A stretch of DNA of 9,889 nucleotides from Escherichia coli (GTDB taxonomy: Bacteria; Pseudomonadota; Gammaproteobacteria; Enterobacterales; Enterobacteriaceae). Made by a program: the position numbers and the translations under genes. The notes under the pieces are model-generated. The model did no database searches, was not told the DNA's origin, and saw nothing but the letters and a program-made list of their open reading frames with translations. Position 1 is the first letter of the stretch, and each line of letters begins with the position of its first letter. The stretch is from the NCBI RefSeq assembly GCF_003334785.1, contig NZ_QOWV01000033.1, one strand, 5' to 3'. Shown one piece after another: positions 3,095 to 3,469 of this stretch.

Positions 3095-3329
3095 ATTCCA
3101 GTAGGCTTTCAACGTGATAACTCAGATGCTCCATTTCAGGCGACTTAGCAGGACTTCCAGGTCATGCATCACAACAGCGCCTCATAGGCGCTGTCAATTA
3201 TTTCACTACTCCACAGAATATCAAAGGAATAGAAATACGCTGGAATGAATTTCTGAGGCTGGCGATCTCAATAAAGTAGGGAACGGTGGCGGCTTCTCTG
3301 ATGCTGAAAAACTGGCGAAACTTAGGCCG

Positions 3330-3469
3330 ATTAAGTCTACACACCAGCACATAAGGAAAATGCTACCTAGAGTTCACTTTTTGGTAAAAAAATATCAATT
3401 ATTATGCAAATAATTAAAGATAATTTTTTGTAAAAAAAGACATCTCAGAAAAAAACACAAGAGGTTACA
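3330..3469 (+). promoter_or_regulatory. AT-rich upstream region of the Rns-like regulator gene (promoter and likely autoregulatory region)
   Basis: Very AT-rich with several A7 tracts; AAGAGG Shine-Dalgarno about 6 nt before the ATG at 3470. No -10/-35 assignment attempted. Confidence 0.35.

Follow-up and report, generated by a model that had tools for sequence, protein, structure and literature searches.

Layout of the window and its plasmid

The window, i.e., the whole stretch of 9,889 nt of Escherichia coli DNA that was analysed, carries an IS911 transposase gene interrupted by a group II intron, a short segment of intermediate composition (nt 3095-3330), and an AT-rich block made up of two AraC-family regulator genes, an ANR-family gene and a chaperone-usher fimbrial operon of the CS22/SEF14/Saf type. 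The part of the window open to comparison (2313-9889) is identical to the E. coli plasmid NZ_AP022179.1 (pWP7-S17-ESBL-04_2), and the IncFII plasmid NZ_CP069544.1 (FDAARGOS_1248) differs from the window at four positions. The plasmid also bears a type VI secretion cluster, eatA and numerous partial transposase genes, and the fimbrial island is flanked by truncated IS911, IS21, Tn3, IS66 and other elements. Mosaic IS and transposon scars of this kind surround virulence islands on the IncF plasmids that diarrhoeagenic E. coli carry; the present case is typical and nothing sets it apart. The features around the segment are as follows.

338-2607, plus strand: group II intron interrupting the IS911 transposase gene; reverse transcriptase/maturase ORF at 994-2517
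2608-3094, plus strand: 3′ part of IS911 (IS3 family), 99% identical to IS911 copies; the right inverted repeat (...GGCCAGTTTTTGTTGACCACTTCA) finishes at 3094
3096-3192, minus strand: IS21 relic, end of istA and start of istB; 92 of 98 positions match IS21, with a 1-bp deletion at about 3136/3137
3174-3194, no strand: perfect palindrome ACAGCGCCT-CAT-AGGCGCTGT, with a 9-bp stem and a 3-nt loop
3193-3318, plus strand: internal relic of a Tn3-family tnpA gene, interrupted by a TAG stop at 3277 and by single-base deletions at about 3204 and 3307
3319-3469, plus strand: AT-rich region (28.5% G+C) upstream of the AraC-family regulator gene, its DNA confined to this plasmid lineage
3470-4279, plus strand: gene for an Rns/CfaD-like regulator of the AraC family, first in the AT-rich fimbrial island

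Alignment of the IS911 copy of strain BL21 with the plasmid copy gives two blocks separated by a 2270-bp gap that corresponds to 338-2607. Domain V/VI of a group II intron was recognised at 2521-2607 by the Rfam model Intron_gpII (64.9 bits), and the intact intron ORF matches the NCBIfam model group_II_RT_mat (336 bits). Specific positions in IS3-like transposase genes, IS911 included, are reported to be homing sites of the intron E.c.I4 (PMC3522654).

The G+C content of 3095-3330 is 46.2% and that of the adjacent 3331-3469 is 26.6%, so that the segment is indeed less AT-rich than the region downstream, as had been noted in the first-pass annotation. The two relics differ slightly (50.5% for 3096-3192 and 42.9% for 3193-3318), and the intermediate value of the segment is simply that of enterobacterial transposase genes lying beside a low-G+C island.

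The regulator gene at 3470-4279 is annotated as AraC family in both plasmids and matches NCBIfam AraC-family models; at the DNA level it is about 69% identical to cfaD-type genes in its 3′ half, within the coding region only. Relatives of the leader (3319-3469) were sought by blastn at word size 11 among 72,556 plasmids, and only the two identical plasmids were returned. Since no relatives of the leader were found, and those of the regulator reach only about 69% identity and only in the coding region, the left border of the island is beyond confirmation by comparison. A second AraC-family gene (4327-5151, minus strand) lies convergent to the first beside the CS22/SEF14-type operon; it has a Rob/SoxS-like N-terminus and is split by a frameshift in one assembly. 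The ANR-family (AraC negative regulator) gene is at 5236-5424 on the plus strand.

An IS-free version of 3095-3330 was looked for by megablast in 72,556 plasmids and 5,426 complete E. coli genomes, where the whole segment occurred only in the two identical plasmids. In a metagenome collection, exact matches to a 30-mer across the junction were found in three contigs, all with the IS911-adjacent arrangement and none IS-free. One of these, a human gut contig of 1.5x coverage, begins with 606 bases that are unrelated to the plasmid and are joined to it inside the intron ORF, probably an assembly chimera. The regulator protein occurs in 308 blocks of the assembly collection and, among 10 contigs read that encode an identical regulator, the nine long enough on the upstream side show this arrangement too. 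The uninterrupted copy that the first-pass annotation had proposed to look for by BLASTN was thus not found in plasmids, complete E. coli genomes, metagenomes or the assembly contigs read, an outcome that the annotation itself had named as refuting its reading. Across the copies compared the segment is invariant, the sole difference being one base at 3444, outside it. The flanking 6.8 kb is also 99.9-100% identical among these copies; they form a clonal plasmid lineage, and the invariance therefore says nothing about selection.

Two transposable-element relics in the segment

BLASTN matches to the segment split cleanly at 3192/3193, with IS21 on one side, a Tn3-family tnpA on the other, and zero overlap between them. 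Pairwise alignment placed the boundaries at 3096, 3192|3193 and 3318|3319 (base 3095, where IS21 has a G, stays unassigned). From these matches and boundaries, the segment consists of two unrelated transposable-element fragments placed end to end, followed by the first 12 nt of the AT-rich leader. It holds that the segment belongs neither to IS911 nor to the fimbrial/regulator island, and is left over from earlier events.

The first fragment (3096-3192) is about 94% identical, on the opposite strand, to IS21 sequences of over 600 plasmids and 740 E. coli genomes, in which the region carries the annotation istA/istB. It retains the last eight codons of istA, the overlapping stop/start TGATG characteristic of the IS21 family, and the first 25 codons of istB; conceptual translation gives an IstA C-terminus (...SAYEALL*) and an IstB N-terminus (MHDLEVLLSRLK...), the istB frame being broken by the 1-bp deletion. 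A complete IS21 is about 2.1 kb, with the transposase gene istA and the helper ATPase gene istB overlapping at stop and start. The window keeps only 97 bp of this, internal to the element, with neither complete frames nor terminal inverted repeats nor a target-site duplication. The whole plasmid was searched for other homology to canonical IS21, and none was seen except a 52-bp flank match and weak matches in a region annotated as IS100-type.

Relative to canonical IS21 the relic has five substitutions, of which four are at third codon positions and three are synonymous. This third-position bias, together with the synonymous changes, suggests that the source was a slightly diverged, once-functional IS21 variant and not a decayed canonical copy. 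All IS21 copies in the plasmid collection are 6% diverged from the relic. An exact search of 100,044 representative genomes with the 21-mer of the palindrome returned no IS21, only a 24-nt Mycobacterium match without flank homology. A 46-nt query with no 28-mer in common with canonical IS21 matched, among 72,556 plasmids, only the two that bear the segment. Because no IS21 copy with these bases was found, we infer the diverged source rather than observe it.

The second fragment (3193-3318) was identified in a more sensitive search with 3185-3475 as query. It is 92% identical to the tnpA gene of Arsenophonus paPb2, and 87-88% identical to many tnpA genes of Klebsiella and Enterobacter plasmids, and it represents codons ~797-839 of a 996-codon gene in forward orientation. 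The 126 bp are homologous to a gene for a TnpA of about 1000 residues, as in Tn3-family transposons; the frame is interrupted by a stop codon and two frameshifts, and the fragment adjoins no ~38-bp terminal inverted repeat, tnpR or resolvase/res module. In the source-type elements (Klebsiella/Enterobacter plasmids and Arsenophonus paPb2), by contrast, tnpA adjoins a divergent resolvase gene. Of the eight substitutions relative to the closest relative, six are non-synonymous, and these changes and the lesions have the pattern that neutral decay would leave. The parent element is of the Tn3 family and possibly Tn5403-like.

A 33-bp relic of a terminal inverted repeat of the same Tn3-type element lies at 20552-20584 of NZ_CP069544.1, about 7.6 kb from the tnpA relic and beyond the IncFII replicon; it is the only other trace of the element on the plasmid. 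A partial recombinase gene elsewhere on the plasmid was considered as a further part and set aside, showing no homology.

With no ends and broken frames, both fragments are relics and not members of intact elements. Three small ORFs (3114-3248, plus strand; 3198-3350 and 3221-3352, minus strand) fall inside the pseudogene fragments or span them and were set aside. No Rfam family matched 3050-3480 at E-values up to 1, and the fold of the whole segment is no better than that of shuffled sequence (z-scores of -1.1 and -0.85).

The palindrome at the seam between the relics

A hairpin with a 7-bp stem (CAGCGCC-TCATA-GGCGCTG) had been described at 3175-3193 and is present exactly there, as part of the longer perfect palindrome at 3174-3194 (folding energy -14.6 to -15.3 kcal/mol). 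When the 236-bp segment was shuffled with its dinucleotides preserved, 6% of the shuffles contained a perfect stem of 7 bp or more and 0.5% one of 9 bp or more. For the whole 9.9-kb window, 22% of shuffles are expected to contain one or more 9-bp stems. The window itself is rich in hairpins, with 11 maximal perfect stems of 7 bp or more (3.9 expected) and four of 9 bp or more (0.25 expected), including two AT-rich 9-bp stems inside usher/chaperone coding regions (8467-8491 and 9220-9241). Given the shuffle rates and the four 9-bp stems, the hairpin is locally unusual but not extraordinary at the scale of the window.

The palindrome straddles the seam. Its inner seven pairs fall within the IS21 relic; each of the outer two takes its right-hand base from the tnpA fragment, these bases (3193-3194, GT) aligning to tnpA and not to IS21. 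Canonical IS21 reads ACAGCTCCTCATAGGCACTCA at this place; only five of the nine pairs can form (-1.2 kcal/mol), and the perfect palindrome is absent. The inner stem is completed by two substitutions: that at 3179, in the left arm, changes Glu388 of IstA to Ala, and that at 3190, in the right arm, is synonymous (third position of the Ser384 codon) and is one of the three synonymous changes of the relic.

The preferred reading, to which we give a probability of roughly 0.87, is that 3095-3330 is inert debris, left behind as one mobile-element event followed another on a virulence plasmid of E. coli (IncFII). In it, 97 bp of an IS21-type element (the istA/istB junction, reversed) abut 126 bp from inside a Tn3-family transposase gene (forward), both trapped between the right end of the intron-carrying IS911 and the AT-rich leader of the AraC-type fimbrial regulator gene. 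The hairpin would be a by-product, with seven pairs contributed by an IS21 variant, slightly diverged, in the sequence coding for the IstA C-terminus, and the outer two completed by chance on joining to the Tn3 fragment. It most likely does nothing, an absence of function that we infer and that sequence alone does not prove. Several points tell against debris, among them the failure to find an IS21 copy with these bases in the plasmids and representative genomes searched, and the listing of the hairpin as terminator-like on the plus strand by a simple consensus scan. All four differences from canonical IS21 within the palindrome create pairs; a perfect 9-bp palindrome is improbable locally, as the 0.5% of segment shuffles indicates; and, if the source was canonical IS21, the chance that two of five substitutions would mend both inner mismatches is about 1e-3 by our own rough estimate.

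Another possibility is that the palindrome was not inherited and was instead perfected after the two fragments were joined, either by quasi-palindrome template-switch mutation or by selection for the hairpin, a proposal that concerns its origin and overlaps the other readings. Canonical IS21 joined to the Tn3 piece already pairs at seven of nine positions, a classic quasi-palindrome, and in the window both leftover mismatches are mended with bases seen in no database IS21. The repairs at 3179 and 3190, however, lie in opposite arms and go beyond one templated event; on this ground, a single template switch was rejected as the origin. The change at 3190 is also synonymous, and the IS21 substitutions outside the palindrome are equally biased towards third positions, a sign that the sequence diverged when it still encoded protein. 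Perfection after joining is considered unlikely.

The segment had also been proposed as a remnant of a terminator or gene 3′ end. The palindrome shares with rho-independent terminators a G+C-rich, perfect stem-loop in an intergenic position, and differs from them in lacking a U-rich tract next to the stem and in its negative discriminant. On the plus strand the tail is CAAUUAUUUC and the bases past the stem read CAATTATTTC; the corresponding sequences of the minus strand are UGUGAUGCAU and TGTGATGCAT. Scored with a d'Aubenton-Carafa-type discriminant (after the 1990 formula), 3174-3194 gives T scores of 0.64 (plus) and 1.58 (minus) and d values of -38 and -21, as against a T score of 4.4 and d values of +29 and +5.6 for a control hairpin at 5564-5592. 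The control has a perfect 12-bp stem bordered on either side by T-runs; it sits between the ANR-family gene and a pilin gene (5623-6129, minus strand) and scores as a perfect-stemmed, bidirectional intrinsic terminator.

A terminator or insulator born by chance, which might halt read-through from IS911 and its intron towards the AraC-family regulator, or leftward transcripts on the minus strand, would draw on the strength of the stem (about -15 kcal/mol), on its position past the stop codon of IS911 orfB (88 nt downstream) and ahead of the promoter region of the regulator, and on a simple consensus scan that lists it as terminator-like on the plus strand (five T in the eight bases beginning 2 nt past the stem). 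The scan returned one such site where 0.6 are expected, i.e., no enrichment, and the CAA directly past the stem leaves no contiguous U-tract. With both discriminant values far below those of the control, we regard this role as distinctly improbable. The segment is invariant in all copies examined, but these are essentially clonal and the flanking DNA is just as conserved, which leaves the invariance without weight.

It is very doubtful, too, that the palindrome, assembled from the end of the IS21 piece, two Tn3 bases and two point changes, is a newly evolved functional element beside the regulator gene. Such an element might act as an insulator or terminator, as a hairpin that stabilises RNA, or as a site for a protein or recombinase, and in this way shield or tune the Rns/AggR-type fimbrial regulator; if it did, the palindrome would be regulatory DNA built out of transposon scraps.

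IS911 as a junction and the proposed order of events

Matches to IS911 copies break off at 3094/3095, in agreement with the earlier placing of an IS right end beside the segment. What lies directly to the right (ATTCCAG...) is the start of the IS21 relic. On NZ_CP069544.1, the left end of IS911 adjoins ...CAGTGAAAAAC, inside a hok/Gef gene that lies beside the IncFII replication control region. In IncF plasmids without the IS, the hok sequence runs on as ACAACACCGTGGCG..., and this continuation (ACAACACCGTGG...) bears no relation to 3095-3330. The comparison covered 6099-6480 of the plasmid stretch, to the left of the window, and 1501-1900 of a second stretch. The rest of hok is absent from the whole 81-kb plasmid. 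As the left end of IS911 truncates hok and its other half is gone from the plasmid, this post-segregational killing locus beside the replicon is inactivated.

Insertion of IS911 produces a 3-bp direct duplication of its target. The three bases on either side of the element are AAC (left) and ATT (right), which is no duplication, and the two flanks are not contiguous in IS-free relatives. A second copy of IS911 carrying the missing flanks was sought on the 81-kb plasmid, and only a 23-bp relic of the left end was found. This relic is solitary (NZ_CP069544.1, 2773-2795) and lies beside a partial recombinase gene. The missing duplication, the hok left flank and the loss of the rest of hok together indicate that IS911 marks a deletion or recombination junction and not a simple insertion into the segment. 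Under the debris reading, illegitimate joining of the IS21 and Tn3 pieces would have come first, followed by an IS911-associated deletion or recombination that placed IS911 alongside.

These results bear on the idea that the segment is a remnant of what the IS had inserted into and could define the original target. It is relic DNA, and to that extent the idea stands. In place of a host gene 3′ end or terminator, however, there are pieces of istA/istB and tnpA, and with hok on the left, no target duplication and the hok remainder missing, the original target is not defined by it. That 3095-3330 is the 3′ end or terminator of a gene hit by IS911 would fit its place directly outside the right end and a composition unlike that of the island, but in this form it is refuted. 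The segment joins an istA/istB junction to an internal stretch of tnpA that runs the other way, IS911 is without a target duplication, the hok continuation of the left flank is unlike the segment and missing from the plasmid, and no uninterrupted version was found in any collection searched. Almost no probability remains for it.

Scarcely any credence is given, likewise, to the junction of the IS21 and Tn3 pieces having been made by an IS110-family (bridge-RNA) recombinase at a preferred IS21 site: in CP099214.1 an IS110-family element of about 1.43 kb interrupts IS21 at the identical nucleotide, after GGCACT and with CT duplicated, but nothing IS110-like and no IS110-type end is present at the window junction, and the right-hand sequence aligns to tnpA from its first base, the preceding tnpA dinucleotide being CA and not CT. 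The coincidence was partly selected by BLAST ranking, since records in which the next two bases match rank first. The element occupies 2544-3978 of the CP099214.1 stretch compared, the one record examined; further records that match through that nucleotide, including chromosomes of pig ETEC, may share the insertion. Its position suggests that the end of istA is a target which IS110-type elements prefer.

All components of the debris reading are of well-known kinds (IS911, IS21, a Tn3-family tnpA, and IS scars at the borders of IncF islands), and its significance outside annotation is slight and biologically unsurprising. For annotation, 3096-3318 calls for a label, as a pair of transposable-element pseudogene fragments (from IS21 istA/istB and from a Tn3-family tnpA), instead of a blank, and the left border of the low-G+C fimbrial/regulator island is placed at 3319. 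Recognition of IS911 as a junction in an IncF backbone, marked by the truncated hok gene, helps to rebuild the assembly of this CS22/SEF14-type fimbrial plasmid lineage.

At the other end of the island, a short ORF at 9639-9767, its start (MNKTLAILLFSVSFSAYA...) resembling a signal peptide, extends out of AT-rich DNA into sequence richer in G+C, which precedes a partial IS66-family transposase gene, annotated from about nt 9805 of the window. It looks like a gene cut off at the right border of the island.
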